A stretch of 32,000 nucleotides of DNA from Microcystis aeruginosa NIES-843 (GCF_000010625.1 NC_010296.1:5040001-5072000); one strand, 5' to 3'; shown: positions 1-27,897, counted from the stretch's first letter. Made by a program: numbers and translations. The notes: generated by a model not told the origin, from the sequence alone.

Positions 1-919
1 CACAAGAATTAAAAATAGCCAGCGTTAAACCCTTCTCGAGCGCGGTTTTCAGTGCCTCTTCTAACTGTGATATCGTCAAACTATTGTGGGTTGAATTCTC
101 ATTAATATATATTCGACCCGTTTGTCCCTGGGTTTGACTGTGACCGGCAAAAAACAGGATATCCCACCCTTCAGGCTGCCATAATTGAGTATTGAACTCC
201 TGGCGTGAGGGGTTGGCCAGGAACTTAACTGACCCATCCTGCAACCGCTGAAGTAAGCGGGTTTCTGTGGCTAAATCAATGCCAGAGCTATTGCCTAAGA
301 CTGCTAAAATCCTGACTTTCTGGTCAGTTTTTGCTGACTTCAGAACATTTCGATAGTGGTACTCTGGTTGACTCAACGCCATTTCCGCTTGGGGATAATC
401 CTCAAAGAAATGCCAGCGATGCCAGGGAAGAGAGCGCAATTCCAGATCGTTAGTTTCAATCATGACTCGGATGGGAGCGGATGAGTCGAGTCGCGATCGC
501 AGTTGCAGTTCAATGGGGAGAAAACCCTCTGATTTCAGCCAAGTATTGATGCTTGCCTGTAGCTGCTGGCACAACTCATCAAAACTGACCTGAGAAATAT
601 TGGTAATGCCTGCTTCACTGATTTCTAGTTCACCAACTTCTACGAGAGAAGCTGAAGATAGATGTCCTGGTTGGGATATTATGGGATGGCGTTGTCCGCC
701 CGTAATGCGTTCAGTTTCGCTGCGCCCAAGGCGATCGCATAGTCCCCGATAAACAAGCTGCCAATTCCGATACAGTTCCCCTAAAGCGGGTGCGGCGGGC
801 AACGTGCCGATAAATTGCTCTGGCCTCGGATTGCCGTCCGTCCATAATTGAACGGTAACTCGCGGAAATCCCTGATACAAATTCCCACTGCCTAGATTAA
901 TAATCACTGACTTGTTCAT
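1..919 (-). CDS. CHAT-domain (caspase-fold) protease, N-terminal ~306 aa; the 3' part runs off the window start
   Basis: Absent from the ORF track because it is open-ended. Manual minus-strand translation from ATG at 919-917 gives MNKSVIINLGSGNLYQGFPRVTVQLW...IRVMIETNDLELRSLPWHRWHFF...GWDILFFAGHSQTQG...GLTLAIFNSC with no stop down to position 1. The LPW(E/H) motif, His in FFAGHS and Cys in IFNSC match the CHAT/caspase catalytic dyad pattern. Confidence 0.75.
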   Translation of the reverse strand, partial: MNKSVIINLGSGNLYQGFPRVTVQLWTDGNPRPEQFIGTLPAAPALGELYRNWQLVYRGLCDRLGRSETERITGGQRHPIISQPGHLSSASLVEVGELEISEAGITNISQVSFDELCQQLQASINTWLKSEGFLPIELQLRSRLDSSAPIRVMIETNDLELRSLPWHRWHFFEDYPQAEMALSQPEYHYRNVLKSAKTDQKVRILAVLGNSSGIDLATETRLLQRLQDGSVKFLANPSRQEFNTQLWQPEGWDILFFAGHSQTQGQTGRIYINENSTHNSLTISQLEEALKTALEKGLTLAIFNSC

Positions 920-1152
920 TTCAGGTAGTAAGGTAAGTTGGCTCTTCGTTACTTGTTATGGTTCGATAGGGGGGCATAAATCGACTAAATCCTTATCTGG
1001 CAAGAGACTTAATTGATTAGTTCGCTCTAGAGCAAAAACAATTGACAAAAATCGCTAAATGCCTTTCTATATAAGGGTTCCATCCCTTATAACCCCCGTC
1101 CATTGCATAACACAAACCGAAGAGCCGGTAAGTTTTGCCATCGGCGCATAAT

Positions 1153-1391
1153 ATAGATGTCAGCCCTTTCATCTTAATACAGGAAAACGGAAGAAAACTG
1201 GAGAATGCTTTAAATTTGGGAAGGGGGGGATGCGATACGCCCTGACAGCAAGGCTTTTCAGCTATCAGGAGAGTAAAGCTTTTCTCAAAATGTATCAGTG
1301 CGATACATCTTGTCCACAAAACCCAAGAGAGCCATCCAGAATTTAGAACCGTAAGTGTATAGGTTGATTTTGCTCACAACTACTAACGAGT
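1153..1391 (+). promoter_or_regulatory. Copy A of a duplicated bipartite intergenic element (module 1 at 1153-1201, module 2 at 1338-1391)
   Basis: About 80-85% identical by eye to 7509-7556 and 7636-7688, in the same order and orientation. It lies between the divergent CHAT (-) and GH104 (+) genes. Module 2 contains GTGTATAGGT and CAACTACTAACG blocks. On the minus strand module 1 reads CCTGTAT(T)AAG, which is -10-like. The repeat itself is solid; its function is inferred. Confidence 0.6.
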
Positions 1392-1520
1392 GTAACGGTT
1401 CGCAGTCGTATGAGGTACATTATCACGGACTACAAACCAGTCTAAGCAAGGCTTTGCCTGTATCTCACTCAATTGCGTATCGCTATAACTGAATCGAGAT
1501 CTAACAAAAGGAGAAATTAC

Positions 1521-2231
1521 ATGGCAGAATTAAGTTTGACCGCCCTTCAAGATACCGTGATCAAGCGATTTACTATCGATAGCACGGATATTGACAATCC
1601 AGGAGAAAAGTTTGATTTAGAAAAAGGCGAAAAAATTGGTATCAACTGGTATCGACCAGCTTCCAAGAATCATTGGGAATTTGAACTCAAATCTCCCCAC
1701 GGAGGCTTTTTCAATTGGTACGTTTTCCAGCCGCACGTTCAGATTAACGATCCCACGCCTGGACATACTGAAGCTTCAGGAAGCAAACAAGTCATGGCTT
1801 TCTTAGATGCCATTGCTTGGCCAGAAGGGACAGATAAGAGCGTTGGAGATGGTGTAAGGACAGGATACAATATCATGTTCACTGGCCAGACATTTTCTAG
1901 TTATGCGGATCATCCCCGTAAGGTTATATGTTCAGGAGGATTATGCTCGACAGCAGCAGGGCGATATCAATTTCTGAACACAACTTGGGATGGAGTTGCC
2001 AAAAAACTAGGCTTGAAAGATTTTTCTCCTAGTAATCAAGACAAAGCCGCCATTCAACTCATTAAACAACGAGGTGCATTAGACGAAATAGAAAAAGGTA
2101 AAATCAGGGCAGCCTGTGACATCCTAAGCTGGGAGTGGGCTTCTTTACCACCAGGTCGTTATGGTCAGCCCACAGTTACCTACGAGAAAATGGAGCAACT
2201 GTTTAAACAGGCGGGGGGAGTACTAGGGTAG
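1521..2231 (+). CDS. GH104 lytic transglycosylase (phage lambda R endolysin-like) with a ~95-aa N-terminal domain of unknown function
   Basis: The C-terminal 150 aa align residue by residue with lambda R as I recall it: AFLDAIAWPEGTD, YADHPRK, STAAGRYQFL, LGLKDFSPSNQD, IKQRGAL, WASLPPGRYGQ, FKQAGG. The catalytic Glu is retained in AWPEGT. I prefer ATG at 1521 (AAGGAG at 1508-1513) over the track's TTG at 1473. No signal peptide is visible. Confidence 0.9.
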   Translation: MAELSLTALQDTVIKRFTIDSTDIDNPGEKFDLEKGEKIGINWYRPASKNHWEFELKSPHGGFFNWYVFQPHVQINDPTPGHTEASGSKQVMAFLDAIAWPEGTDKSVGDGVRTGYNIMFTGQTFSSYADHPRKVICSGGLCSTAAGRYQFLNTTWDGVAKKLGLKDFSPSNQDKAAIQLIKQRGALDEIEKGKIRAACDILSWEWASLPPGRYGQPTVTYEKMEQLFKQAGGVLG

Positions 2232-2453
2232 TAAAACTTAGTGCGATCACCTCTTTCTAAGTGGATTGATACGGCTAATTTAGTGTATTTAATTGGGTGG
2301 GCAATGCCCATCAAATCTCGAACATCTAATACCTCATTTTAGTCGTGTCAATCAACTACAAAATTCTACTTGTGATGATCGAAAAAATTGATCACACGAG
2401 AAACAAGAGGGCAGGGTAAATTTAGTATACTTCCTATTGTCTAAGGCTATTGT

Positions 2454-2786
2454 CTAAGGGGCTGAATGGTATTTTCCCGTAAGCATGATCCGTGATTGGT
2501 GAATCCATCCTATTTGCTCTTTTCCGCAGGCAATAGTTGAATACCAGCCATTTATTGGACTACCTAGCCCATTCACACTATTGGTAAAGTGATACACAGA
2601 AATTGTGACTTTTTTGGTAATGCGACAGATAATTTTTCCATTAGGTTGAGATCGAACATTAGAAGGGATTTTCTGGACTATTGCGTATTCTGCCATGACA
2701 GTTGAAGCAGATAATGGTTGATTGAATGTCAATCCCAGATTCATTAAAGTAAGAAACGTGATTTTCAAAAAGAAGTAAGTATTCAT
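2454..2786 (-). CDS. Small secreted SH3b-like (bacterial SH3) domain protein
   Basis: Hydrophobic N-terminal signal-like segment (FFLKITFLTLMNLGLTF...SAS), followed by NVRSQPNGKIICRITKKVTISVY...NGWYSTIACGKEQIGWIHQSRI, which fits the SH3_3 pattern. Confidence 0.6.
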   Translation of the reverse strand: MNTYFFLKITFLTLMNLGLTFNQPLSASTVMAEYAIVQKIPSNVRSQPNGKIICRITKKVTISVYHFTNSVNGLGSPINGWYSTIACGKEQIGWIHQSRIMLTGKYHSAP

Positions 2787-2922
2787 GAGGTGTTGTCGAG
2801 TAAAGATTAATTATAACTTGAGCGTTGTTCAGTTACGATCAAAAGCCCAAACTGGCTCATAGCGGAAACAGCGAGCATGGCCAATAAACACCATACAGCT
2901 TACCTCAAGATGTCGGGAGAGC

Positions 2923-3090
2923 CAGTCACTGAGATCGCCGATCTGGTAGGTTGGGTTGACGTGAGGAAACCCAACAACCAATCAAAAGTTATCTTGTAGT
3001 ATCAAAGATACTAATCTTGATCGATAAAGTTACTGAACATCAGTGAGATCGCCGCTCTTGTAGGGTGCATTAACGAAGTGTAATGTGCCT
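2923..3090. repeat. Two copies of a short dispersed cyanobacterial repeat, each ending in a hairpin
   Basis: CACTGAGATCGCCGATCTGGTAGG (2927-2950) matches CAGTGAGATCGCCGCTCTTGTAGG (3041-3064) at about 21/24 positions. The first copy is followed by the hairpin GGTTGGGTT-N-AACCCAAC and the second by GTGCATTAAC-N-GTAATGTGC. Confidence 0.6.
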
Positions 3091-3248
3091 TAATTTATGG
3101 CAGAAACCCGTCATCTTCTGTAAAATAAATTGAAGATAGGATTTTTCTTCGCCTATCATAAATCCATCCCCTAAAATAACCATAAGGAGACCACATCACT
3201 CAATCTAAACTACTTACAGGAGAAGGAAAAGTCGGGACATACGGCGAC

Positions 3249-3602
3249 TTGTTAAAATTGGGTCGTAGAGGAGATAACTTAACACCTCATCATGTACCAT
3301 CCAACGCTTACATGAAAGCTAAAATCAAAGATTACACAACTAATCAAGGAATAGCTATCATGATGGAACATTTATCCCCCGGAAAAGGAGGTCATCATCG
3401 TCACACCTTATCTTATGGTAAAAGTCCAGACTTAACCCTTTCCCCTCGACAAACCTTAGCGCAAGAAGTTTGGGATATTCGCTCTATTTATCTGCGTCAA
3501 AGATTATATGATACAGATATTAGAAAGCGTCTGCAAGAACTCATTAAACTTAATAAAACAACTTGGTTAACCTTTTTTGATAAAGGAGTTATAAACCCAT
3601 GA
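3249..3602 (+). CDS. Orphan polymorphic-toxin-like C-terminal module (HH-motif, possibly HNH/EndoVII-fold); probably a displaced toxin tip without its own ATG
   Basis: The frame is open from 3186 (GDHITQSKLLTGEGKVGTYGDLLKLGRRGDNLTPHHVPSN...) with no ATG; only TTG at 3249 is available. It has PHHVPS and GGHHRHT His clusters. The segment is AT-rich, and there is a 4-nt ATGA overlap with the next ORF. Family assignment is uncertain. Confidence 0.4.
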   Translation: MLKLGRRGDNLTPHHVPSNAYMKAKIKDYTTNQGIAIMMEHLSPGKGGHHRHTLSYGKSPDLTLSPRQTLAQEVWDIRSIYLRQRLYDTDIRKRLQELIKLNKTTWLTFFDKGVINP

Positions 3603-4027
3603 ATTTACTAAAAATCTTACAAGAAAATCGTTTACTGAAAACACCTCAAGAAATCAAGTTATTTGAGGAAACTTTAGAAAAAATTGCTAAATATCCTAAG
3701 GATGACAATCTAAAGGAATTACATCTTATCTTAGATGATAATTGTGAACATCCTGAAATTATGTTTAGTTTAGTTCATTTTTTAGAAGATTTTGATCTAC
3801 AAAAACAAATACCAGCTTTTATTGAAGTGATTCCTCAATTAATGATCGCTGCACCAGAATGGACAAAAATCATTCACTATCGCATCATGAATGATGAATC
3901 TGCTTGTAAACTTTATCACAATACTCTGGAATTAGCCAATCAAAAGACCCCTCATTTCTTATATCAACTTTTACTAGAAAGTGTTAAAAATCATCTCAAT
4001 TCACCTTCGTACCAAATACGCTTTTAA
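3599..4027 (+). CDS. Putative cognate immunity protein (small, acidic, helical)
   Basis: Its start overlaps the upstream stop (ATGA at 3599-3602). It is 142 aa with no signal peptide or TM segment and shares the AT-rich composition of its partner. This architecture is typical of toxin/immunity cassettes. I do not recognise a family with confidence. Confidence 0.4.
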   Translation: MNLLKILQENRLLKTPQEIKLFEETLEKIAKYPKDDNLKELHLILDDNCEHPEIMFSLVHFLEDFDLQKQIPAFIEVIPQLMIAAPEWTKIIHYRIMNDESACKLYHNTLELANQKTPHFLYQLLLESVKNHLNSPSYQIRF

Positions 4028-4043
4028 AAGTAGAGTAACCCTA

Positions 4044-4113
4044 TACCTCTGTTGCCTGTTTCCTGTTGCTTTTGCCTGTCTCCATGAGTAGCCTATGATA
4101 AACGGATTTAGTA
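4044..4113 (-). repeat. Solo terminal-inverted-repeat-like remnant related to the IS5-type element at 13600-14635
   Basis: The reverse complement reads ACTAAATCCGTTTATCATAGGCTACTCATGGAGACAGGCAAAAGCAACAGG. The IS left end reads CTAAATCCGTTGAGTATAGGCTAGTTATGAGGAGAGGCAAAAGGCAAGAGG. The remnant abuts the vapC stop codon. Confidence 0.55.
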
Positions 4114-4545
4114 TCATTGGGGTACCTGTACTTTATAAGCAATCTCAGAACCCAGCCTTGTAAAATGCTTTGGGTTGAGGGTTAACAGAACATCAGCCTG
4201 AGATTTGAGGACTGCTTGGGCGATAAGGGCATCAAAGATACCACCGCCAGGAAGCTGACGTTGCACCATTAGGTCAATAGCTGCCGTGTAATCTTCAGCA
4301 GTCAGCGAAACAGTATCGAAGGTCTGTAGGTTATCGCGGATCAAGTTTTGGGCGACGGCAGGGGAGATTTTGGTTTTGGGAATGCGCGTTAGAACAGAAT
4401 AGAGTTCTGCTAGGGTATGCGTGGCAATAAGTCCCTGAATTTGCTGGGATTGGGCTTGAAGGAGAAAGGGCAAGCAGGCCGAATGATGAGTGTGTCCAGT
4501 CAATAGGGCAGCGATGAGAGCAGAGGTATCAAAGAGACATTTCAT
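4114..4545 (-). CDS. vapC: PIN-domain ribonuclease toxin, VapC family
   Basis: MKCLFDTSALIAAL (N-terminal Asp), TLAELYSVL (Glu), GIFDALIAQA (Asp) and LTLNPKHF match the PIN acidic signature. It overlaps the upstream antitoxin gene by 4 nt. Confidence 0.85.
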   Translation of the reverse strand: MKCLFDTSALIAALLTGHTHHSACLPFLLQAQSQQIQGLIATHTLAELYSVLTRIPKTKISPAVAQNLIRDNLQTFDTVSLTAEDYTAAIDLMVQRQLPGGGIFDALIAQAVLKSQADVLLTLNPKHFTRLGSEIAYKVQVPQ

Positions 4546-4799
4546 GCAGGCAATTGGCTTTGAATGCGTTCCTCGCGGAGGTCATCAATAAGGGTATCGA
4601 GATGGCCGAGGGGTGGGGTTTCTAGCACTAAGGCACTGCCTTGACGTTGGACTTTAGCTTCTTGCTCCAAGGGTTGTAGGATGATGCAGCCTTGTCTAAC
4701 CTCAAGATTGAGGGATTGGGCTGTGGTGATGCCGAGTTGTTGACGGATTTCTAGAGGAATTTCTAGTTTTCCGCTGTCATCGATCGCAATTGCCGTCAT
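4542..4799 (-). CDS. vapB: AbrB/SpoVT/MazE-fold antitoxin, VapB type
   Basis: GKLEIPLEIRQQLGITTAQSLNLEVRQGCIILQP is a swapped-hairpin AbrB-like motif. The protein is 85 aa and sits immediately upstream of, and overlapping, the PIN gene. Confidence 0.8.
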   Translation of the reverse strand: MTAIAIDDSGKLEIPLEIRQQLGITTAQSLNLEVRQGCIILQPLEQEAKVQRQGSALVLETPPLGHLDTLIDDLREERIQSQLPA

Positions 4800-4811
4800 G
4801 GAACGCTCCTA

Positions 4812-4861
4812 GGGATAGAACGAAAGTTTGGCTCTTTCAATAACGCTATAAATTCTATCCC
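4812..4861. promoter_or_regulatory. Inverted repeat in the vapBC upstream region (possible VapB operator)
   Basis: GGGATAGAA (4812-4820) and TTCTATCCC (4853-4861) are perfect 9-bp arms, starting 13 nt upstream of the vapB start. The function is inferred from the known autoregulation of vapBC loci. Confidence 0.3.
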
Positions 4862-4910
4862 CTGTAAGGTAGTTTTGCCTGTGTAGAAAACGCCCATGAT
4901 ACCCCAACGC

Positions 4911-5987
4911 CTAGAGTTCAAAATTCTCGCAGAGGCAGGTGTCACCGAGACTAACCACAATACTAAAGGGGATACCAGAGCGCCCTTTAAAAGATTTAAG
5001 CTGAATATAGTTATCTTGCGTTCTGGAGCCCACTTCTTGAAGCTTTTTGCCTGCCTGAGAAAGCAACGTTAAGGCGATCTGGGGTGGCAGATATCGCTCC
5101 TCACCCGCCGGATGTAACTGAACCAGCACAGATAGCTGATTATCGGCTTCTTCTGTAACATTCACCAACAAGACCACTCTCTGTCCTTGCAACTCCATCC
5201 CCAAGTCAATAAGCTTCCCGCGTTTTGCACCCTCTCTCTGATTCCGAGGACTCCAAGCAAGATGAACTTCTGGACTAAACAGATCGTCGATCGCTTGCCA
5301 TCCTGCTGCAAAGACCCCCTGTATCCACTGTCCTAACTGGATAGGAGTTTCTTGAGAAGCCGTTAATGTGGTTTCAGAGATTGCTTCAGGCGTTGCGGTA
5401 TGCTCCGTTGAAATGACGGGCAATAGTATTGAGGCAGGTTCTAGAAAATCACAGTAGAACAATAAATGATTGGGTTCAGGATCGAAAACAGATAGGGGAA
5501 TTTGATAATAATCGTTTTGTAAACCATCACTGACCCGATGGCAATAATTCATGAGTCGGTCAGATCGCAAAAAGCCTCGAATCATCACTCGCTGCTGCTC
5601 TTCACAGACCTCAAGCAGGACATAGAAATGAGCGACAAGAGCCGGCTGTTCGATCGCTTCTCTGGGAATTTCCACTACTTCATCTAGAACCTGCTCTTTG
5701 ACAATTAAATTTAGCTTAAATTCATCAATTTTAAGGTTGTAAACAGCACCAATATGATTGATACATTGAGTTCGATCGAGGCAGTGTGATGGAGCGCGTT
5801 TCTCTAGCCATTGCTCAAAACCCAATAGTGCCAGGGCATTCAGATAGAGTTGCCACTGACCCGCTTCATCGACTGAGGGACTGGCCAGGGGATTGACTAG
5901 CGCCTGCTCAAACTGTTCTGGTTCAAGCCTTATGGCTTCAGGTCGGCTAAGATTTAAATCTGGTGGGATCGCTCTTAAGCTAAACAT
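4911..5987 (-). CDS. DUF1822-family protein (cyanobacteria-restricted, function unknown)
   Basis: WQLYLNALALLGFEQWLEKR and the overall ~360-aa layout match my recollection of DUF1822. The likely start is ATG at 5987-5985, forming a TAATG overlap with the stop of the upstream sigma-like gene. The track's longer ORF to 6035 starts inside that gene. Confidence 0.65.
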   Translation of the reverse strand: MFSLRAIPPDLNLSRPEAIRLEPEQFEQALVNPLASPSVDEAGQWQLYLNALALLGFEQWLEKRAPSHCLDRTQCINHIGAVYNLKIDEFKLNLIVKEQVLDEVVEIPREAIEQPALVAHFYVLLEVCEEQQRVMIRGFLRSDRLMNYCHRVSDGLQNDYYQIPLSVFDPEPNHLLFYCDFLEPASILLPVISTEHTATPEAISETTLTASQETPIQLGQWIQGVFAAGWQAIDDLFSPEVHLAWSPRNQREGAKRGKLIDLGMELQGQRVVLLVNVTEEADNQLSVLVQLHPAGEERYLPPQIALTLLSQAGKKLQEVGSRTQDNYIQLKSFKGRSGIPFSIVVSLGDTCLCENFEL

Positions 5988-7459
5988 TACGAAACTCCTT
6001 GTGTAACCTTTGTACACTCTTCTAAGTAAAAGCAAAGCTGTTGAGCATATACACTTTTCATCAGACGATTCTTTCCCGCTTGAATTTCTTCAAACGCTTC
6101 CTGAAATATTTCTGCATCTGCCAGCGCCTCGATTTGCTTGGCTAAATTTTCTAAATAATCGGGTTGAGGAGGAAGAGCAGTCAGTCCTTTCTCTTCAGCT
6201 TTCTTCAGCATTTGGTCAAGCACTTGTCGAATTGTCAATGTCCGAACAGTGTTAATTAACTCTCCCGGATTCAACACCCGTCTTGCTTGCGCCCAACCAG
6301 ACATTTTTAATAAATCAGCAATCTCTTTCAGTGCGATGCCCTGAGAATAATAGAGGTGTAATCCTGGAATAAATCGATCGGCGAAAGCGGCATACCCTTT
6401 GCTTTTTTTTAAATAAGTAATGCGATCGCTAATTGCCTGCTTAATGGAATGAACTAAGGCAAGTTGAAGCTGTTTGTGGAAGAATTCCAACATTTCTTGT
6501 TGCTCTTGCTGCTCCACATTATATTCACTGGCAATATCCTGCGGCAGCTCTGAGCGAATCAGGCGATCGCCTGTCTCTGGATCTTCAACTTCTAACGGTT
6601 CTCGATGGCTCCAAAGGTCAAATTGTCTAAGTTGTAGTGCCACTCTTCGCAGTTCTGTGATCAATTGGTTGGGCTGAATTGTGATATTTCGTGCTTTTAA
6701 ATAAGTCACCATCTCTTGAAGTTGCCCGGTTGTGGGATCTAGACAGCGTTTCGTACCCTGGTGTTGCTGATGCCTGTCTCGACGATAGACAGCGTGGAAG
6801 GCGGCAATTAAGTGGCGATCGCGTTCTGCCAGTTGTTGCAATTGTTTCGAGCGAGTGCGATTGAGTAGAGCCCAGTCGCTCAATTGTTTGAAGCCAAACT
6901 CGGATAAAAAATTCTTTAATTCTGGATTTTGTTTGGTTTGTAAATAAGTCCAGTTATCTAAGCTCATACTGGATTGAGCGTTGGGCTTAAAGGTTCGCAG
7001 AATTTGCAGTGAGAAACATTGATAAGCCGTTGTTTGAGGCTTGCCAGTGGGGTCTAAGGTGAGATAGGTTTTGCCATCTGAGTCTAAAACCATCAGCGTT
7101 TTCCCGTCGTCATTGAGGACAAACGGCAGCAAATCTCGGTAAGTAAAGGAGCGATCGTCTCCGAACAAATGATCGATTTTGCGGCAGGCGTTGAGAATCG
7201 GCTCAGAAACGTAACACCGCAGGCATAGTCCTGCGTGCGCTCTTTCTGTGGTATCAACTGCTGGAGCTTGAAAGCGGGATAGCAAATCAGTCTGGAGATT
7301 TCTCTGTTGGGAGCGATCGCCCCTATCCTCCTCTGCCTCACTTAACCCTTGGCTTTGAAAAAAATCATTTGCCAACGGGAGGAAACAACGCTTGTATCCA
7401 GTGCGATCGCTGGCAGGGTCAATGCGCCAAAGGTTGCAGTATCTTGATGCAGCACTCAT
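5987..7459 (-). CDS. Atypical long (490 aa) sigma-70-family-like protein
   Basis: It has a C-terminal region-4-like HTH (GLHLYYSQGIALKEIADLLKMSGWAQARRVLNPGEL) and an N-terminal stretch that could be a degenerate region 2 (CLRCYVSEPILNACRKIDHLF...FTYRDLLPFVL). It is coupled to a DUF1822 gene, a pairing I recall from cyanobacterial annotations. This was not verified by profile search. Confidence 0.55.
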   Translation of the reverse strand: MSAASRYCNLWRIDPASDRTGYKRCFLPLANDFFQSQGLSEAEEDRGDRSQQRNLQTDLLSRFQAPAVDTTERAHAGLCLRCYVSEPILNACRKIDHLFGDDRSFTYRDLLPFVLNDDGKTLMVLDSDGKTYLTLDPTGKPQTTAYQCFSLQILRTFKPNAQSSMSLDNWTYLQTKQNPELKNFLSEFGFKQLSDWALLNRTRSKQLQQLAERDRHLIAAFHAVYRRDRHQQHQGTKRCLDPTTGQLQEMVTYLKARNITIQPNQLITELRRVALQLRQFDLWSHREPLEVEDPETGDRLIRSELPQDIASEYNVEQQEQQEMLEFFHKQLQLALVHSIKQAISDRITYLKKSKGYAAFADRFIPGLHLYYSQGIALKEIADLLKMSGWAQARRVLNPGELINTVRTLTIRQVLDQMLKKAEEKGLTALPPQPDYLENLAKQIEALADAEIFQEAFEEIQAGKNRLMKSVYAQQLCFYLEECTKVTQGVS

Positions 7460-7508
7460 ACTACGCTCTCCCGAAGTTTGTTGAGCTTGCGATTAGCTCA
7501 CCTGATCA

Positions 7509-7688
7509 ATAGATGTCAGCCATTTTAGCTTATACAGGAAATCGGAAAAAAACCGGGGAGATTTAGATTTAGACAAGATGGCTCAGTTCCAGATTTTCCA
7601 GAACTGATCATCCCTTGCCAGACCTAAGAATTTCTAGAATTTAACCTTCAAGTGTATAGGTCGGTTTAGCTAACAACTACTAACGGGT
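7509..7688 (+). promoter_or_regulatory. Copy B of the duplicated bipartite intergenic element (module 1 at 7509-7556, module 2 at 7636-7688)
   Basis: See copy A. It lies between the divergent sigma-like/DUF1822 operon (-, ATG at 7459) and the secretin-like gene (+, ATG at 7749). Confidence 0.6.
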
Positions 7689-7748
7689 AGAAGGAAAGCA
7701 AATGAGCTTAACTTCCCAAACAAACTCAATTTTTTACAGGAGAAAATC

Positions 7749-9881
7749 ATGTTCACTATTTCTAAGCAATCCATGTCATTCCCGCGTAGAAAGTTATCTC
7801 GTCAGCTTGCTCTGGGTCTAAGCCTCAGTATGATTGTAAGCTTTGGGGGGGAAGTATCTGCTCAAACCGCAGATATTAATATTAGAGTTAGTGAGCCTCA
7901 AGGAGGAGGGGCGAAATGTGAAGATCTTGACTATACGCAACAAAAATCATTCAAGCAAGCATCTCAATCCGTGAAACTCTACTATATCCGTTCCGCATCT
8001 GATCTTAAAGGGATACTAGCTCAGATTGCATCTAAAAATCCTTGCATAAAAGGTACGGTCATTGAAGCTCAAGGTGATAACACTATTGTTTTATATGGCA
8101 ACGAGGAACAGAGAAAAGCATTGCAACGAGTCATTACAATTTTAGATCTGCCCCGTGAGAGTGTCAATCTGGAAATGTGGGGAATACTCATATCCAGCAG
8201 CAACCCTGGTAAACTGGCTGAAGTCATGCGCCAAGTCAACAAAGAAATTGATACGACTCAACAATTACTGCAATATACTTATCAAAAGTTTGAAGAGTTT
8301 GCAAAAGATGTCGATATCGATATCGATGCGGATGATGACAATTCTAAAATGAGCTATAGCTCATTATTGCAACAAACTCTTGGATATCGGACAGCATTAG
8401 ATAAAGATCGTTCCCTATCTATGATGGATATCTTACTACGCATCAACGCGGCGAAAGATCCCTATTGTAATAATAAGGCTGCCGCCAAAAAACTTGATAT
8501 ACTTTTTCAAGAAGAGCGTTATAAACCCTATATAGAAGCTTTAAAAAAAGAACAGAAAATACCATTTGGAAACTACATACAATTGGGTTTACTACAAGAA
8601 AAAAGTTCAAACTTAAATCAAAATTGTGAAATTAAAAGTAAAGATCGAGAAAAAGTATTGCTCAAAAACTTGAATAGACGAAGAGCCGTGCTGGATTTTG
8701 CCCTACAGTACTCTAATCTAATGAACAATCCGGCGGGTTTTGATCCCGAAGCTTTGCAACAATCTGCCGAAACCCTGAACTCAGTTTTGCAGCCGATTGT
8801 TCATGCTATCAACCGTGACGTAGAAGAGTTATTCATTGAACCCACCTTAGCAAGAATCCAAAGCATCGTGAGGGATTATAAGAAGGTGTCCTATGCAGAA
8901 GTTGGTAAAACCAGCGTACAGGGTTTAAATGGAATTAAATCGACAGTCACCTCAACAACAGTCAGTGCCTTTGATGAGACTGGCCCTCTAAGGTTGGATG
9001 AATTGTTCAAAACAGCTAGTGAGATCAATAATTTTTCTAAAGAGTTAATCCCTGCTCCTGCTGGAGCCAATACCGTCCCTAGTGCACCAGTGTTAAGTCT
9101 GATTGCTGCCCTCAGCAAAGATACATCGGCATGGCGAGCAATAACATCAGGTGTTTCAATGGAAATTACTCCGTCAGTGTTACGCAACAGTGCATCTGCC
9201 GAACTAGATATTAATTTTACTACTGGACCGACAAAAGATAAAGAGCCTGTGCCAGATCAGTTCACTGGAACGACAAGACTGCGCCCCCTATCCCGCATTA
9301 AGCAGAATACAGTATCGACGAGGGTTTATGTTAATACTCTAGATATTTTTGCCCTTTCCACCTTCAACAGTCAAACCACCGAAGATGGAGGACGCACCTA
9401 TATCCCTGTTATCGGGACAATCTGGCAGGGAGTATTTAGCGGTGTCCCAATCATTGGTCAACTGTTCAGTTGGAAAAACTCTCCTCAAAGTGTCCAGCAC
9501 CAAAGCATCGTACTGACAAATTCTTTTATTGTCCCTACGGCGATGGGATTAGCTACTTTGTATCAACAACAACATCAACAACAACATCAACCGTCGTCAC
9601 TGTCGTCGCCGCCGCCGAAGCCGCCAAGAATGAAGGATGAGGAATATGAGGAATATAAGCAATCTTATGAGCAATATAAAGCTAAATTACTTTACTATGA
9701 TCACTGTTACGCAGTTGAACAGTATATAATTAACCGTGAGGGTGAAATTGAGGAAGAAGAATCTTCTGGAGAACAAAAACAAAATTATAATTTTAATCAA
9801 CCTCTCTCATTCTCATCATTAGATAAAAAAATCAAAGATGTCTGCGGAAAGCCACCACAACCACCAGACTTTTATCGTTAA
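7749..9881 (+). CDS. Divergent stand-alone secretin-like outer-membrane protein
   Basis: Signal peptide (LALGLSLSMIVSFGGEVSA/QT). Secretin_N-like module (VKLYYIRSASDLKGILAQI...GTVIEAQGDNTIVLYGNEEQRKALQRVITILDLPRESVNLEMWGILISS). Secretin C-domain-like end (SGVSMEITPSVL...STRVYVNTLDIFALS...IPVIGTIWQGVFSGVPIIGQLFSWKN...SIVLTNSFIVPT). The middle ~280 aa and the Q/H/P/E/Y-rich tail are not canonical. AGGAG lies 8 nt upstream of the ATG. Confidence 0.65.
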   Translation: MFTISKQSMSFPRRKLSRQLALGLSLSMIVSFGGEVSAQTADINIRVSEPQGGGAKCEDLDYTQQKSFKQASQSVKLYYIRSASDLKGILAQIASKNPCIKGTVIEAQGDNTIVLYGNEEQRKALQRVITILDLPRESVNLEMWGILISSSNPGKLAEVMRQVNKEIDTTQQLLQYTYQKFEEFAKDVDIDIDADDDNSKMSYSSLLQQTLGYRTALDKDRSLSMMDILLRINAAKDPYCNNKAAAKKLDILFQEERYKPYIEALKKEQKIPFGNYIQLGLLQEKSSNLNQNCEIKSKDREKVLLKNLNRRRAVLDFALQYSNLMNNPAGFDPEALQQSAETLNSVLQPIVHAINRDVEELFIEPTLARIQSIVRDYKKVSYAEVGKTSVQGLNGIKSTVTSTTVSAFDETGPLRLDELFKTASEINNFSKELIPAPAGANTVPSAPVLSLIAALSKDTSAWRAITSGVSMEITPSVLRNSASAELDINFTTGPTKDKEPVPDQFTGTTRLRPLSRIKQNTVSTRVYVNTLDIFALSTFNSQTTEDGGRTYIPVIGTIWQGVFSGVPIIGQLFSWKNSPQSVQHQSIVLTNSFIVPTAMGLATLYQQQHQQQHQPSSLSSPPPKPPRMKDEEYEEYKQSYEQYKAKLLYYDHCYAVEQYIINREGEIEEEESSGEQKQNYNFNQPLSFSSLDKKIKDVCGKPPQPPDFYR

Positions 9882-9959
9882 TGATAATGAGAATTTTCAG
9901 GAATAATGGTGCAGACTACATAACAGCAGTTTCACTCTGTCAATCATCTCTATCGCCTG

Positions 9960-10085
9960 GTTAAGTAGGGAGGCACAATTATTTGTAGGATGGGTTAGCG
10001 GTAGCGTAAACTATACGGGCGTTGGGTTTCATGCTTCAACCCAACCTACGTTCATCTTATATTTAATTCCACCCACCTACTTAAC
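9960..10085. repeat. Nested palindromic MITE-like element between the secretin-like and patatin genes
   Basis: Outer arms are GTTAAGTAGG (9960-9969) and CCTACTTAAC (10076-10085). Inside are the hairpin units GTAGGATGGGTTAGCGGTAGCGTAAAC and GTTGGGTTTCATGCTTCAACCCAACCTAC, which are common cyanobacterial dispersed repeats. Confidence 0.6.
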
Positions 10086-10107
10086 ACTTTGAAAATAGGA
10101 CAAAATC

Positions 10108-12279
10108 ATGAACACTACGAATTCAAAACAGAAACTAAACTACATTCCACAGATCATCATCGGCATCGGCATAATTGCGATCGCTGTAGTGGTTTGGTGG
10201 CACATTCCTGATTCTTTCTGGAAATATCTTTTTTTCTTGCGTGCACCTATTCTCTGGGGTTTACTGCTGGTGACACTCCCTCTAATAGCTACCTTATGGC
10301 TGCCAGCCATGCTGAGAAATTTATTTGTTCTTCGTGGTCCGTGGCAACTTATCTCTGTAATTGTCAGTGCAAACATGGCGGCAATAGGGGTCATTATTAA
10401 TGCCTATATGCTTCTCAAAGGTGCGCCAGATCGTTTTGGACTATCACCGTGGCTCGAAATTTCTGACATCTGGCAATATGGGTTGGCGATCGCTTTGAGT
10501 TTACCGATCTGCGTCACCTCTTATAAGCTTTCAAAAGAGGAAATTAAAGAAAAGAATCCCATCCAAGGAGTGATTTTCAGCGTGTTATTGAGTTTGGTGC
10601 TGTTGTTTGCAGTGATTCAGACGAAAACCTGGATATTTACTAACTTTGCTAACAATAAGTTACTCATTAGTTTCGTTGAATTCATTACCAGACATAAAAC
10701 TGAAGGCTATATTATAGGAACACAGCCAAAACCACAGCAATTCCTTGAAGGTCATCTGAGTAACATCGCTTTTTTTATAGTTGCCTTCATCGTCTATGGC
10801 ATCATTGGTTGGAAATTTCAGCCACAATCTCAACCATCCGACAAGAAAAAAGAAGCGGCTGCCCTAATGTATGTGATGCTAATCATCATGATGATAGCAC
10901 CCTTGTCTGGAAGCCTAACCTTCTATTTCGATTACTATCGCGTTCCTGTCTTTCTGCTCTTTGTGGTTATTGTTGCTTTGATGTATGCGCTGTTTAAGGT
11001 GGATCACTTTTTTGAATTAAACTTAAATGAGGCAAACAAATACGATCCCAAGGATTTCAAAAAGGCAATAGAAAAACGACTCGAGTATCAAGAAGAAGAA
11101 AAGGAAAAGACCTTAGTAGTTGTCTGTGCGAGTGGGGGCGGCATTCAAGCCGCAGGCTGGATAGTTCAAGTCCTGACGGGATTACAAGATATGCTAGGTA
11201 ATTCGTTTACCAAGTCAATTGGTTTTATTAGCTCTGTTTCAGGTGGTTCAGTTGGAACGATGTATTATCTCGATCGCTTTGCCGATAAAGGATATCCTGA
11301 GTCTAAGGAGTTTGAAAATATCTTTAAGAGTGCTACTGAAGATAGTTTGGATGCGGTAGGTTGGGGATTAGCTTATCCTGATTTATGGCGCATTATTGGG
11401 CTTCCTTTTTTCGCTCCTAAAATGTGCGATCGGGGAAAAGTAATAGAGACAGATTGGCAAGGAGAGTTAAAAAATCCCAATAGCAAACAATTTTTATCTA
11501 CTTGGAGCGAACAAATTTTAAATGGTAAAATTCCCATCCCTATTTTCAATGCGACTCTGGTTGAAGATGGTCGTCGATTTCTAATTTCACCGATGACTTT
11601 TTGTAAACCTAGTAGCAACAAATCAGTGGATTTTAACACCCTTTATGCGGGATATGACATTGATGTTGTCACAGCCGCAAGGCTCTCAGCAACTTTTTCT
11701 TATATATCGCCTATTTCTCGCTATGTTGGTGAAAATAAAAACCAGAAGGGGAAAGGGAAGGGGAATTATCATATTGCCGATGGTGGCTATTTCGATAATT
11801 CTGGTATGGTAACAATGGTGGAATGGCTCAATGAATGGCTAGACCCCCAGAAAGGACTTAACATTAAACGAGTTCTTTTGTTACAAATTAATGCTTTTCC
11901 TAAGACTGAACCCTCCAAAAATGAGAGTGGCGGTGGAGGTTGGTGGCAGGCGATAATAGGTCCTTTACTGACCTTATTCAGCGTCCGTGATACTACCCAG
12001 TTGTCTCGAGTTTCTACTGAAGTAGAACTTCTTCAACAGCGATGGAAAAATCAAGTAAAGATCGCATATTGTCCTATCTTTTTTCCAAAGAATGGTAAAA
12101 ATAGTGAAAATAAACCACCTCTGTCTTGGCAACTAACGGAAAAGCAAAAACAAAATATTAAAAACGGATGGTGCGGAATTAAGAAGGAAATTGGGGAGCA
12201 AATTGGGGAGCAAATTGGGGAGGAGTGGAAAAAATGGGGATTTGAAGACCCATCTCAAAAATCGACCAATGAGAAATAG
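10108..12279 (+). CDS. Patatin-like phospholipase fused to an N-terminal ~8-TM membrane domain
   Basis: About eight hydrophobic segments lie in aa 15-300. The patatin hallmarks follow: oxyanion-hole CASGGGIQAAG, nucleophile GxSxG in VSGGSVG, and catalytic Asp in IADGGYFDNSG. Confidence 0.8.
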   Translation: MNTTNSKQKLNYIPQIIIGIGIIAIAVVVWWHIPDSFWKYLFFLRAPILWGLLLVTLPLIATLWLPAMLRNLFVLRGPWQLISVIVSANMAAIGVIINAYMLLKGAPDRFGLSPWLEISDIWQYGLAIALSLPICVTSYKLSKEEIKEKNPIQGVIFSVLLSLVLLFAVIQTKTWIFTNFANNKLLISFVEFITRHKTEGYIIGTQPKPQQFLEGHLSNIAFFIVAFIVYGIIGWKFQPQSQPSDKKKEAAALMYVMLIIMMIAPLSGSLTFYFDYYRVPVFLLFVVIVALMYALFKVDHFFELNLNEANKYDPKDFKKAIEKRLEYQEEEKEKTLVVVCASGGGIQAAGWIVQVLTGLQDMLGNSFTKSIGFISSVSGGSVGTMYYLDRFADKGYPESKEFENIFKSATEDSLDAVGWGLAYPDLWRIIGLPFFAPKMCDRGKVIETDWQGELKNPNSKQFLSTWSEQILNGKIPIPIFNATLVEDGRRFLISPMTFCKPSSNKSVDFNTLYAGYDIDVVTAARLSATFSYISPISRYVGENKNQKGKGKGNYHIADGGYFDNSGMVTMVEWLNEWLDPQKGLNIKRVLLLQINAFPKTEPSKNESGGGGWWQAIIGPLLTLFSVRDTTQLSRVSTEVELLQQRWKNQVKIAYCPIFFPKNGKNSENKPPLSWQLTEKQKQNIKNGWCGIKKEIGEQIGEQIGEEWKKWGFEDPSQKSTNEK
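12190..12225 (+). repeat. 12-bp in-frame tandem repeat (ATTGGGGAGCAA x2 plus a diverged third unit) in the patatin gene 3' end
   Basis: Read directly from the sequence; it encodes IGEQIGEQIGEE. Confidence 0.9.
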
Positions 12280-12427
12280 CCAGCTTCCTACGGTTGCGCT
12301 TCATCCCCAATAATTTAATGTGCGATCGCTTTTTTTTGACCTTCAACTGATCCGCGATCACTTTTTGAGGTTTTTATAACTGCGATCGCTCATCAACCGG
12401 GCAAATAACCAAGTCACTATCAATGCT

Positions 12428-12682
12428 GTGGATACCGGGAGCGGAGCGCTGGCGAAGCCAGATCGCTTCGGGCGTACCGTGGCCGAGGTGTACGCAGGGG
12501 GTCAGCTAGTTCAACTTCAGCAGGTGAAGGACGGGATGGTTTGGGCTTATGATCGATTCAAGGCTGACTGTCCAAGCTGGAATGAAATCGAGAGGGCTTT
12601 TAAGGAAACTCCCTCGAATCGCAAGGGAATTTTCGGGGGAAACCCGATGCCACCCTGGGAATGGCGACGACGGAATCGGTAG
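12428..12682 (+). pseudogene. Thermonuclease (staphylococcal nuclease-like) C-terminal fragment
   Basis: DRFGRTVAEVYAGGQLVQLQQVKDGMVWAY...PWEWRRRN matches the C-terminal third of SNase-family proteins. The N-terminal catalytic part is missing and only a GTG start is available. Confidence 0.6.
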
Positions 12683-12710
12683 TTTATAGAGAAATTCCGA
12701 GAGGTAAACT

Positions 12711-13124
12711 ATGAACAGAGACATCATTACTGGAATGGACGGCGAGATTTATGCCAGACGCGATCTGAGTCGGGAGTGGGGCGGGGCGATCGATCTGGGA
12801 ACCGCGAGAACGGGAAAAAGTTTCGGCGTTGACGGACACTTAGGGGAAACTAATTGCCTCGGCGTTTGGGATAGTGTGGACAGACTCAGATTCAGGACTT
12901 CGCGTAACCTTCGTCTGGAACTCGCCACCGACCCCAAGGTGATCACCGAGTTGGTCCGATTCGATAGTAAGGGTGTCGCCACCGTCGTCGGTTCGGTTGA
13001 ATACGGCGCTCGATTATCCTTGAATTTAACACCGGGTCGCTACGGCCTCAGTTTCTTTGTCGAGGGAGATTTGATCTCTTATCAGGTTAATGCCAGTTTT
13101 AGCCAGGGAACAAACGATTTCTAA
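12711..13124 (+). CDS. Hypothetical protein (137 aa), beta-rich; weak resemblance to pre-peptidase C-terminal (PPC)-type domains
   Basis: ATG with GAGAGG upstream. It lies in a locally GC-richer patch. The DSVDRLRF...LRLEL...GRYGLSFFV pattern is only suggestive. Confidence 0.4.
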   Translation: MNRDIITGMDGEIYARRDLSREWGGAIDLGTARTGKSFGVDGHLGETNCLGVWDSVDRLRFRTSRNLRLELATDPKVITELVRFDSKGVATVVGSVEYGARLSLNLTPGRYGLSFFVEGDLISYQVNASFSQGTNDF

Positions 13125-13132
13125 AATCTTAA

Positions 13133-13248
13133 CCATTGAAGCTGTTCTAAGCTAAACGGCGCTTAACCTGCATGATCCAACAGCTATAACCCTTTTGGAG
13201 TCTATATCGGTGATCCAAAGTAAAAGCCGTTTAGCTTAGCTTCAATGG
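13133..13248. repeat. Long hairpin / MITE-like inverted repeat
   Basis: CCATTGAAGCTGTTCTAAGCTAAACGGC (13133-13160) pairs with GCCGTTTAGCTTAGCTTCAATGG (13226-13248), separated by a ~65-nt spacer. Confidence 0.75.
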
Positions 13249-13270
13249 CCATAACCCAAGAAATAATAAG

Positions 13271-13333
13271 TTGATAGCTGAATGCTGATCGCTGATGACT
13301 GATCGCTAACGACTGATGACTGATGACTGATTA
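13271..13333. repeat. Heptanucleotide microsatellite, about 9 units of CTGATNN
   Basis: TTGATAG CTGAATG CTGATCG CTGATGA CTGATCG CTAACGA CTGATGA CTGATGA CTGATTA. This is the reverse-complement family of the repeat at 18273-18321. Confidence 0.85.
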
Positions 13334-13599
13334 CTAGAACTCTTGCAAATTAATTATATGTTATAATGGTGGGTTAACTAATTTTCCCAAAAAAATAGTT
13401 AATTAGCGCATTTGTTCTGAATGAAAACCTGAAGTTTAACTTTTAACCCAAAACTCTTTAGATATGCTTTAATTTGGTTGTCAAAACCTCTTTATTTAAG
13501 CAGCACAAACTATCTCAATTATAAAAATTGAGAATAAATTCTCCTTGACTTGATTAATGTTTGGCAACTTTTAATAAGTTGCTATACCTATCCCTAATA

Positions 13600-14635: not shown

Positions 14636-15067
14636 GATGATTTCCTGACCTAAGATCACATTTTATTCTTTTTTCCACTTCCATCTAAAAATTGAGAAAA
14701 AAGCCAAACCCTCCATTATACAATAAAAAAATTATGCAAGAGGTCTAGTGAAGTCGCTGGTTTCGCTCTAATCTTTACGGGGCAAGTCTTTCAACCGATT
14801 TTACTCCTTCACTCCCGAAAAATTGAGCGAACGATGAGTCCTGACTCGGAGAATACTGACTCGGAGAATACTGACAGCTTTCTTTTGCCTTTGGCCTTTT
14901 TACCTAAAATGTCGGATGAATGCCCCCGCTACATTTTTCGACAAGACATCAACCTTTGCGGGGGATGAAATCCGACCAGGATATTAACTGCGAAGCACGA
15001 TTTTAATACTACCATCTATGGGTAAACTGTGTTATAATTAAACTATCCAATGGTCGAGGATTAATCA

Positions 15068-27848: not shown

Positions 27849-27897
27849 TGTTGATCACCTATAGATTTGAACCTAATTACTAAAAAATAATGGCAAT

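Follow-up and report, generated by a model that had tools for sequence, protein, structure and literature searches.

Microcystis has here its own copy of a cyanobacterial system, EACC2-caspase plus ECF sigma plus DUF1822 (TPR), that was described computationally by Kaur et al. 2021 (eLife, PMC8195603); its core runs sigma-like gene, DUF1822 gene, EACC2-CHAT-nSTAND gene. From its sequence, the locus is probably this known caspase-gated sigma module equipped with Microcystis-specific envelope-active cargo, with a single motif marking the system. Gene identities, synteny, the motif and the motif statistics were observed directly. What is new relative to Kaur et al. 2021 is the motif, together with the cargo at this locus (muramidase and secretin-like gene); the presence of the system's conserved promoter before genes for a wall-cutting enzyme and an outer-membrane pore suggests how sensing might be linked to attack on the envelope, which can be tested. 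The window, i.e. the whole analysed stretch of 32,000 nt, contains the following features of the locus.

1-919, minus strand: 5' part of the gene for an EACC2-like N-domain plus CHAT (caspase-fold) protease, the rest lying beyond the window edge
1148-1184, minus strand: promoter-motif copy A1, pointing at CHAT, degenerate with a 1-nt insertion
1352-1388, plus strand: promoter-motif copy B1, 84-132 nt upstream of the muramidase start
1521-2231, plus strand: GH104 lambda-R-type lytic transglycosylase (muramidase), proposed cargo
4911-6035, minus strand: DUF1822 protein, probable start ATG 5987
6021-6057, minus strand: embedded promoter-motif instance inside the 3' coding end of the sigma-like gene, 34 nt upstream of the DUF1822 ATG
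5987-7459, minus strand: atypical sigma-like protein of 490 aa
7504-7540, minus strand: promoter-motif copy A2, 45 nt upstream of the sigma-like ATG
7649-7685, plus strand: promoter-motif copy B2, 63 nt upstream of the secretin-like ATG
7749-9881, plus strand: divergent secretin-family outer-membrane protein, strain-variable cargo
10108-12279, plus strand: membrane-anchored patatin-like phospholipase with 7-8 TM segments

The six gene calls of an earlier note on this DNA all stand, that of the sigma factor with weak support. The DUF1822 call was borne out by profile search (Pfam PF08852, E 2.8e-64), and the true start of this protein is likely the ATG at 5987. The caspase-fold call holds for the 306-aa CHAT fragment (Pfam CHAT, E 2.3e-5) and for a full-length Microcystis orthologue (CHAT, E 1.7e-14; nSTAND1, E 1.3e-63), and the His/Cys dyad FAGHS...NSC was seen. 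The domain name EACC2 is assigned from architecture and context.

The sigma-like protein is highly conserved across cyanobacteria, and the corresponding gene is named an ECF sigma factor by Kaur et al. 2021 (PMC8195603). Searches of Pfam, NCBIfam and PDB gave no match above threshold, and region 2 was not detected by profile searches. Of 15 family members, 8 showed a Sigma70_r4 match that stayed under the threshold (best E 0.024), and a candidate region-4 HTH lies near residues 355-395. The top Foldseek matches are sigma-A chains, at non-significant E values of 0.1-3; alignment to RpoE region 2 with hhalign gave an E of 0.079. Because no profile passes its threshold and the Foldseek matches lie at E 0.1-3, sigma identity is weakly supported: region-4 and fold signals and the published assignment speak for it, the profile thresholds against it.

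The core was compared across 79 cyanobacterial loci containing the sigma-like gene. DUF1822 lies immediately 3' of it in 77, and an EACC2-CHAT homologue within 10 kb in 43, often contiguous and on the same strand. The first ~150 aa of the CHAT protein are kept at 41-79% identity in these 43 loci, and the Microcystis gene is 79% identical to an Aphanocapsa gene immediately 3' of DUF1822. The N-terminus is constant and the C-terminus varies among genomes (nSTAND1+WD40, nSTAND1 alone, or CHASE2); Kaur et al. 2021 (PMC8195603) likewise describe the C-terminal part of the caspase protein as highly variable. The Microcystis locus shares with that cyanobacterial system its three components, the sigma identity being weakly supported, the constant N-terminal domain plus caspase with a variable C-terminus (nSTAND1/WD40/CHASE2), and a caspase gene adjacent to those for the sigma-like protein and DUF1822. 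The earlier claim of an undescribed system does not hold for this core, which was published in 2021 (PMC8195603); neither promoter nor target genes are named in the passages of that paper covered here. Muramidase, secretin-like and patatin genes were found in 0 of the 79 loci, so the gene-neighbourhood check supported DUF1822 and CHAT as partners of the sigma-like gene but not the six-gene composition as a conserved system.

Unlike the published arrangement, the ancestral operon sigma-DUF1822-CHAT has been split here by an insertion of about 4 kb, and the CHAT gene has gained its own copy of the promoter region. The insertion, between the CHAT and DUF1822 genes, carries VapBC, a toxin-tip/Imm30 pair, a small secreted protein and the GH104 muramidase. 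The first three of these had been left out of the earlier note. TnpB and transposase fragments were also seen near the locus.

The motif reads AACTGCATAAG-N13-CATCTATTTA. A duplicated bipartite upstream element had been reported before, and it is real: the two copies (1153-1204 with 1353-1391, and 7509-7559 with 7650-7688) could be aligned within the window, A1/A2 and B1/B2 are paralogous and about 85% identical, and this one motif accounts for element "A" as well as element "B". By matrix scan, 55 of 68 species have the motif ahead of the sigma-like gene; a regular-expression scan found it there in 53 of 77 loci, with a spacing of 13 nt in 52 of the 53 regex matches and usually 47-58 nt from the sigma-like ATG. 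Further sites among the 79 loci precede DUF1822 (21) and other ORFs (53). Control cyanobacterial loci totalling 182 kb yielded no site, against about 11 expected at near-sigma density.

For a stringent search, the matrix was built from non-sigma sites of other species only. It returned exactly four outliers in the 32-kb window: A2 before the sigma-like gene (25.1 bits with PWM2; 32.3 bits with PWM1), B1 before the muramidase (23.4 bits), the embedded site before DUF1822 (18.9 bits) and B2 before the secretin-like gene (13.9 bits; 18.9-21.3 bits in Microcystis strain variants). The next best site scored 3.5 bits, and 0.03 sites of at least 13.8 bits are expected per 32 kb under the null. The embedded site also encodes the peptide SVYAQQLCFYLE of the sigma-like 3' end; orthologous embedded sites in other loci reach 33 bits, and loci whose sigma-like and DUF1822 genes stand apart have strong sites in the intergenic stretch. 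A1 before CHAT is a fifth copy, out of register only by a 1-nt insertion (CTGTATtAAG). It scores 23.4 bits after deletion of one base, and its intact counterpart in strain L084 scores 30.1 bits. The element that four transcription units were said to share is therefore confirmed and belongs to five, the CHAT copy being weakened.

The tie of this promoter-like motif to the sigma-like gene across cyanobacteria makes co-regulation of the motif-bearing units by the sigma/DUF1822 pair a well-founded prediction. A2 is presumed to be the autoregulatory promoter of the sigma-like gene, and the sigma-like protein is predicted to read the motif. It is quite unlikely that the genes are chance neighbours in a variable island, the cargo being unrelated and the intergenic motif copies relics of a segmental duplication during operon rearrangement. 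Such an origin would account for the ~85% identity of the paralogous copies, the lack of muramidase, secretin and patatin synteny noted above, the secretin presence/absence variation and sigma 5' pseudo-fragments among Microcystis strains, and the VapBC, Imm30, TnpB and transposase fragments close by. However, B1 and B2 fit a matrix derived from other species, and in 300 simulated windows B1-level scores never and B2-level scores rarely occurred. Divergent motif pairs resembling A/B also lie beside the sigma-like gene in 17 other loci, each from another species, with different cargo. The B promoter, moreover, is kept in every Microcystis strain, whatever gene comes next (secretin, a 192-aa secreted protein, or the patatin directly).

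It is unlikely, though less so, that control runs by activation or repression, the motif being the operator of another regulator or the 490-aa protein an HTH transcription factor and not a sigma subunit. Consistent with this are the failure of every sigma model to pass threshold, the undetected region 2, and a length far above that of ECF sigmas with additional beta-strand inserts. Against it stand the form of the motif, i.e. two conserved blocks at a constant spacing that lie a short and constant distance from the start codon, as expected of -35/-10 elements, and the sigma-A fold matches together with the Sigma70_r4 matches in 8 of 15 members; in addition, no sigma-70-type promoter was predicted in the sigma/secretin intergenic region. 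ECF sigma/anti-sigma modules with autoregulated promoters exist, e.g. sigma-E/RseA. Another example is DdvS/DdvA (PMC6061681). Like these, the Microcystis pair has its own highly specific bipartite promoter-like motif, a probably co-transcribed partner gene and a predicted small local regulon. It differs in having a protein of 490 aa that matches no sigma profile above threshold, a partner, DUF1822, that is not a known anti-sigma fold, and a predicted cytoplasmic input, the caspase-STAND protein, instead of a membrane signal cascade.

Among the cargo, the lambda-R-like lytic transglycosylase was confirmed by a match of residues 89-234 to phage lambda lysozyme (1am7/3d3d, E 1e-37); a Pfam search gave no match. 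The catalytic Glu (E19) is conserved, with AWPEGTD aligned to AWSEGTD, and the enzyme shares about 50% identity with lambdoid R endolysins. It is extremely improbable that the region is a prophage remnant or phage-type lysis cassette. This identity of the catalytic domain points that way, but the N-terminal 87 aa of the muramidase are unique and absent from phages, and no holin, spanin, phage structural, terminase, integrase or tRNA gene was found in the window, which upheld the absence of phage structural genes stated before. The muramidase adjoins the small secreted protein, toxin/Imm30 pair and VapBC, with neither holin nor spanin beside it. The lambda lysis cassette consists of S holin, R transglycosylase and Rz/Rz1 spanin; the trait shared with it is a GH104 enzyme of R type, lacking a signal peptide, close to genes that potentially breach other envelope layers. 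Unlike there, the Microcystis genes form separate transcription units, are not phage-borne, come without holin or spanin, and include a muramidase with an extra N-terminal domain.

The secretin call was sustained by SctC TIGR02516 (E 2.6e-8) together with PDB profile and fold matches. Pfam Secretin was hit at E 1e-4, with 22.5 bits against a gathering score of 27.5, and PF00263 is carried by some homologues. A family profile run against PDB matched only secretins, in the N domains of GspD, MxiD and PilQ (best E 9.5e-4), and the seven best Foldseek matches of the AF2 model were all secretins (best E 3.4e-4). In the model, residues 71-132 form a beta-alpha-beta-beta-alpha unit (N3-like domain), residues 153-375 a large helical insert, and the C-terminal part the secretin core; the sequence also shows a Sec-type leader. 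The family is nevertheless separate: at E<=1e-3 it comprised 702 clusters with 0 canonical secretins. Secretins are known as GspD, InvG and PilQ of T2SS, T3SS and T4P, and pIV is an orphan phage secretin. The Microcystis protein shares with them the signal peptide, the N3-like ring-building domain and a secretin core with an IPxLGxLF-type motif, and its fold matches are EpsD, GspD, PilQ and InvG. It differs by the helical insert of ~220 residues, by a C-terminal tail of low complexity, by a gene that often has a membrane lipase or esterase gene next in line, and by its lack of partner machinery. No T2SS, T3SS, T4P or filamentous-phage partner gene was found in the window or in 8 homologous neighbourhoods, so the T2SS/T4P part of the earlier statement of absence likewise held. 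The gene is absent or replaced in Microcystis strains L080, L081 and L087 and is thus dispensable within the genus.

The TM-patatin scores below the Pfam Patatin gathering threshold (E 3.5e-4; 21.3 against 27.7 bits). The call was accepted on the catalytic motifs GGG (ASGGGIQA), GGSVG (SGGSVG) and DGG (ADGGYFDN) and on homologues annotated PF01734 or patatin-like; 7-8 hydrophobic segments are present. No motif directly precedes this gene in the window and no terminator was found between it and the secretin-like gene, with which it may be co-transcribed. Patatin-like phospholipases serve as effectors of defence systems, e.g. CBASS CapV. Catalytic motifs and a possible membrane-degrading output are shared with CapV-type patatins, but the Microcystis protein is fused to an N-terminal domain of 7-8 TM segments, and PADLOC (PADLOC-DB v2) gave no match for any of 10 proteins.

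If the caspase-gated module operates as its composition suggests, the STAND/caspase protein would detect an invader or stress signal, and its protease activity would free the sigma-like protein from a restraint, DUF1822 being the likely partner or anti-sigma. The sigma-like protein would then guide RNA polymerase to its own promoter, giving positive feedback, and to the cargo promoters. Wall-cutting enzyme, outer-membrane pore and possibly the membrane lipase would be made, and the envelope would be breached or remodelled. Control of the sigma-like protein by caspase and DUF1822 is inferred here, as is the fate of the cell; lysis, abortive infection or export as the function of the region would be pure inference. 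It is doubtful that the whole is a programmed-lysis switch, in which a caspase-STAND sensor gates a private sigma whose promoter drives muramidase, secretin and patatin as a set that would take apart three envelope layers. Were this so, the conserved motif would define the module's death/defence regulon across cyanobacteria.

Tentatively, and with somewhat more likelihood, the wiring may be as described with a non-lethal output, envelope remodelling or protein release instead of suicide or abortive infection, such as wall turnover, export of secreted cargo by way of the secretin, or a colony or sheath change. The endolysin-type muramidase without export signal, the toxin-antitoxin and toxin-immunity genes adjoining the locus, and the controller itself argue against this, caspase-STAND fusions being assigned to conflict and cell-death systems (Kaur et al. 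2021, PMC8195603). In its favour, TM-patatin is a widespread stand-alone cyanobacterial gene with homologues usually among housekeeping genes, and the secretin-like gene recurs as a separate cassette with membrane lipases or esterases next to it; neither the motif nor the sigma pair was found with the patatin or secretin-like genes of other organisms. The motif cargo of other species, which holds no obvious killers, points the same way: it is often secreted or peptidoglycan-related, with CAP (6), LysM (5), GH19, GH75 and 3D domains recurring besides small signal-peptide proteins and Nif11-type peptides.

The region from 1 to 12279 contains the following genes and intergenic regions.

919 to beyond the window edge, minus strand: CHAT gene (Pfam match, the fragment scoring at threshold)
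600 bp: intergenic region between the CHAT and muramidase genes
1521-2231, plus strand: lambda-R-type muramidase (GH104; PDB 1am7/3d3d, E 1e-37, catalytic Glu aligned)
2454-2786, minus strand: small secreted protein
3249-4027, plus strand: 117-aa toxin-tip-like ORF, then an Imm30 immunity gene (Imm30 E 7e-42)
4114-4799, minus strand: VapBC pair (PIN E 1e-14)
4911-6035, minus strand: DUF1822 (E 2.8e-64)
5987-7459, minus strand: 490-aa sigma-like gene
290 bp: intergenic region between the sigma-like and secretin-like genes
7749-9881, plus strand: secretin-like gene
10108-12279, plus strand: multi-TM patatin gene

For the CHAT protein, a full-length Microcystis orthologue matched CHAT (E 1.7e-14) and nSTAND1 (E 1.3e-63), and a His/Cys dyad was visible in the sequence. 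GGG, GxSxG and DGG motifs are present in the patatin protein, as are 7-8 hydrophobic segments; many of its homologues carry PF01734. PADLOC recognised none of the window proteins tested and NCBIfam yielded nothing useful for classification. The six gene calls of the earlier note were correct, the sigma-like call being the weakest; the intervening toxin-antitoxin and toxin-immunity genes had gone unmentioned. The 117-aa ORF is an orphan polymorphic-toxin tip with a PHHVPS motif and no Pfam match, and with its Imm30 gene it lies beside the VapBC (PIN) pair.

For comparison of gene neighbourhoods, 79 loci from different cyanobacterial species were fetched via an alignment of the sigma-like family, and the window proteins were compared with them by tblastn.

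Occurrence of homologues of the window proteins in the 79 loci
DUF1822: in 77 of 79, on the same strand as the sigma-like gene and immediately 3' of it
EACC2-CHAT: within 10 kb in 43 of 79, in many immediately 3' of DUF1822
Muramidase: 0 of 79
Secretin-like: 0 of 79
Patatin: 0 of 79
Imm30: 0 of 79
Small secreted protein: 0 of 79

The conserved unit is sigma-like gene, DUF1822, EACC2-CHAT, in that order. In an Aphanocapsa locus (L003) it is contiguous (sigma, 3201-4673; DUF1822, 4625-5749; CHAT-STAND-WD40, 5753-10501). The CHAT proteins have a constant N-terminus, followed by nSTAND1 and WD40, nSTAND1 alone, or CHASE2 at the C-terminus. Microcystis carries an insertion of about 4 kb between DUF1822 and CHAT, made up of unrelated genes that include the muramidase; in Microcystis strain L084 a copy of the CHAT-proximal spacer (window 939-1053) still lies directly after DUF1822. 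The toxin tip/Imm30 genes (3249-4027, plus strand) and VapBC (4114-4799, minus strand) both lie within this insertion, the content of which differs among Microcystis strains. The Aphanocapsa CHAT orthologue runs on into WD40 repeats (1582 aa), and in Microcystis L087 the CHAT-nSTAND1 gene (11025-13022) stops at 665 aa within the STAND domain and may be truncated or decaying.

This core was described before. Kaur, Iyer, Burroughs and Aravind (eLife 2021, PMC8195603) reported proteins in which a constant N-terminal EACC2 domain is followed by a caspase domain, the C-terminus being variable, and proposed "a multiplicity of genes" to be regulated through the sigma factor. The EACC2-caspase/sigma/DUF1822 systems are known solely through comparative genomics, and in the text covered no report of a promoter, target gene or phenotype was found. 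The proposal of an undescribed system is therefore wrong for the core. The neighbourhood conservation suggested for the whole group held for the sigma-like/DUF1822 pair and CHAT, but not for the muramidase, secretin-like and patatin genes. As a unit, the six-gene composition is lineage-specific and even strain-specific, the effectors being absent from the 79 loci and the secretin gene variable within Microcystis.

The two divergent intergenic regions have two blocks in common, A (1153-1204 and 7509-7559) and B (1353-1391 and 7650-7688). Between the sigma-like and secretin-like genes, no promoter was detected on scanning for the sigma-70 consensus. Neither Rfam nor tRNA scans gave a match in the window; thus, A and B do not correspond to any known RNA, and no tRNA marks an island border. 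That A/B might be a dispersed repeat of Microcystis, or a MITE, was considered and rejected: in a metagenome scan, B occurred at the orthologous locus only, with two copies per locus, in Microcystis and Aphanocapsa. Comparison of the 250-nt regions preceding sigma-like genes across the 79 species gave a common motif, CTGCATAAG-N13-CATCTAT, which is block A. By regular expression it preceded the sigma-like gene in 53 of 77 loci with a spacing of exactly 13 nt in 52 of the 53, its end usually lying 47-58 nt ahead of the start codon.

With a first matrix (37 nt, 35 bits), the motif was also detected before DUF1822 and many other genes of the same loci. The 21 sites before DUF1822 were intergenic where the genes lie apart; where they abut, the sites fall within the 3' coding end of the sigma-like gene. 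The stretch that encodes a conserved C-terminal peptide of this protein, SVYAQQLCxYLE, also contains the DUF1822 site (window 6021-6057, minus strand; also loci L007, L009, L010 and L016), an apparent dual-use coding and promoter sequence; embedded sites reach 33 bits in other species. Against circularity, a second matrix was built from non-sigma sites only, excluding Microcystis and Aphanocapsa. Over all 64,000 window positions it gave four outliers.

Best window sites of the second matrix
7504-7540, minus strand: block A2, before the sigma-like gene, 25.1 bits
1352-1388, plus strand: block B1, before the muramidase gene, 23.4 bits
6021-6057, minus strand: site before DUF1822, 18.9 bits
7649-7685, plus strand: block B2, before the secretin-like gene, 13.9 bits
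Next best window site: 3.5 bits

Markov simulation of the window (300 runs) gave a mean of 0.03 sites with at least 13.8 bits, and none reached 18.9. At block A1, before CHAT, one inserted base breaks the match; with this base removed it scored 23.4 bits, and strain L084 has an intact form (30.1 bits). In 182 kb of control cyanobacterial loci plus the rest of the window there were zero motif sites, versus about 11 expected at the density near sigma genes. Judged by sequence, blocks A and B are one signal in opposite orientations, because the cross-species matrix finds both and the controls none. The co-regulation that the earlier note had argued from the duplicated blocks is strengthened, as the motif is conserved across cyanobacteria and is placed before five units in the window. 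No report of it was found in the searchable literature.

A divergent motif pair lies beside the sigma-like gene in 17 other species, with a different gene behind each. In Scytonema sp. HK-05 (L032 9450-9702, minus strand) four tandem copies with a 72-nt period lie upstream of a 287-aa ORF diverging from the sigma-like gene. For analysis of cargo, 49 motif-preceded ORFs of other species were scanned against Pfam. CAP (6) and LysM (5) were found, together with Nif11-type peptides and pentapeptide proteins (2 each) and one each of GH19, GH75, 3D domain and RTX protein; many motif-preceded ORFs encode small signal-peptide proteins. As secreted or peptidoglycan-directed cargo recurs in this way, the GH104 muramidase and the outer-membrane protein are plausible as cargo, and not just neighbours by accident. 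A reading of the effectors as unrelated passengers, based on 0 of 79 loci, was overturned for muramidase and secretin by the cross-species motif analysis. That muramidase, secretin and patatin are pure chance neighbours of the sigma pair is likewise hard to reconcile with the matrix result. A prophage remnant is very unlikely: the lysozyme domain of the muramidase is of phage type, and the window has no other phage gene.

The secretin-like protein matched the SctC model (E 2.6e-8) and stayed under the Pfam gathering scores. A profile of 18 family members matched only secretins in the PDB (GspD, MxiD, PilQ), and with the AF2 model as Foldseek query, all of the top seven matches were secretins (E down to 3.4e-4). 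Behind a Sec leader, the protein has a single N3-like domain, a confidently modelled helical insert of ~220 residues and a low-complexity tail. The full profile search returned 702 cluster representatives at E<=1e-3, which makes this a distinct family rather than a single case. In the other organisms examined its genes never adjoin a sigma/DUF1822 pair, and often a membrane lipase or esterase follows: TM-patatin in loci L090 (35% identity, E 4e-114) and L096, and a DUF900/DUF676 esterase in L092 and L093. The window and these four loci share a two-gene cassette of secretin-like and multi-TM lipase/esterase genes with no secretion machinery nearby. In Crocosphaera (L095), a secretin-like gene lies near DUF928, CHASE2, TPR-CHAT and a PG_binding/Phage_lysozyme2 gene. 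The family is an uncharacterised outer-membrane component worth study. The TM-patatin family has >600 members, and in Nodularia, Nostoc and one Xenococcaceae genome it stands alone among housekeeping genes. The motif was absent from the secretin-like and patatin genes of other organisms; thus, neither family is a general member of the regulon. In the window, the patatin gene has no motif of its own and may be co-transcribed with the secretin-like gene, because no terminator-like site separates them.

Among Microcystis strains, L084 and L086 resemble the window at this locus. In L080, window 7758-10075 is cleanly deleted, and with it the whole secretin gene; L081 retains only the last 29 secretin codons, and L087 has a 192-aa secreted protein instead. 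The B promoter is fixed beside the sigma-like gene, and the gene behind it varies: it is secretin, patatin with no gene in between, or the gene of the 192-aa protein. Pseudo-copies of the sigma-like 5' end were found at L081 4758-4901 and L087 2808-3035 (codons 28-104, Microcystis) and at L003 474-620 (motif and codons 1-24, Aphanocapsa), so the promoter-proximal region was duplicated repeatedly.

The sigma-like protein (99% identical to Microcystis MAG proteins) had no above-threshold match in Pfam, NCBIfam, or PDB sequence and profile searches. A Sigma70_r4 match below threshold was found in 8 of 15 family members, and the mediocre AF2 model (pLDDT 69) gave a Foldseek list headed by sigma-A chains, not significant. 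With hhalign, the conserved RCYVSEPILKAC...FTYRDLL block aligned weakly with region 2 of an E. coli RpoE sequence (E 0.079). The 490-aa protein is a putative sigma factor on these grounds, and since this assignment is weak, a different kind of regulator could possibly act on the motif.

If it is a sigma factor, ECF-sigma logic and the proposal of Kaur et al. suggest that it would read the motif and hence autoregulate. DUF1822 and the caspase-STAND protein would control its activity, e.g. by proteolytic release after sensing of an invader or stress, and the output would be synthesis of envelope-active proteins. The muramidase has no export signal and there is no holin, so its route to the wall would require membrane damage, with patatin as candidate, or another route. 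The cargo, which comprises CAP, LysM and glycosidases elsewhere and, in Microcystis, a secretin and an endolysin-type muramidase, suggests the cell envelope as the target of the output; lethal lysis, abortive infection, non-lethal remodelling and export would all be compatible with it. The motif provides a concrete, searchable handle on what EACC2-caspase/sigma/DUF1822 systems switch on. Microcystis is a bloom-former in which mass lysis and caspase-like activities have long been debated. The small set of genes and promoters makes both its programmed-lysis question and the uncharacterised caspase/sigma system directly testable.

Mobile-element debris flanks the locus at 12428-16354, with a staphylococcal-nuclease fragment (12428-12682), an HTH_Tnp_4 transposase fragment (14084-14536, minus strand) and TnpB/IS605 OrfB (15068-16354). 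A 14-nt perfect inverted pair, GTAGGTTGGGTTGA at 2946-2959 and TCAACCCAACCTAC at 10036-10049, may be a REP-like repeat; the latter copy sits between the secretin and patatin genes, in sequence resembling a stem-loop. At 20667-21356 (minus strand), an LRAT/NlpC-P60-like domain (E 1e-25) is fused to a PspA/IM30 segment. At 23691-29313 (minus strand), a 1385-aa WD40-repeat protein is encoded downstream of an AAA_35 protein (E 3e-87), with no sigma-type motif; these genes look like a second STAND/WD40 conflict-type pair.
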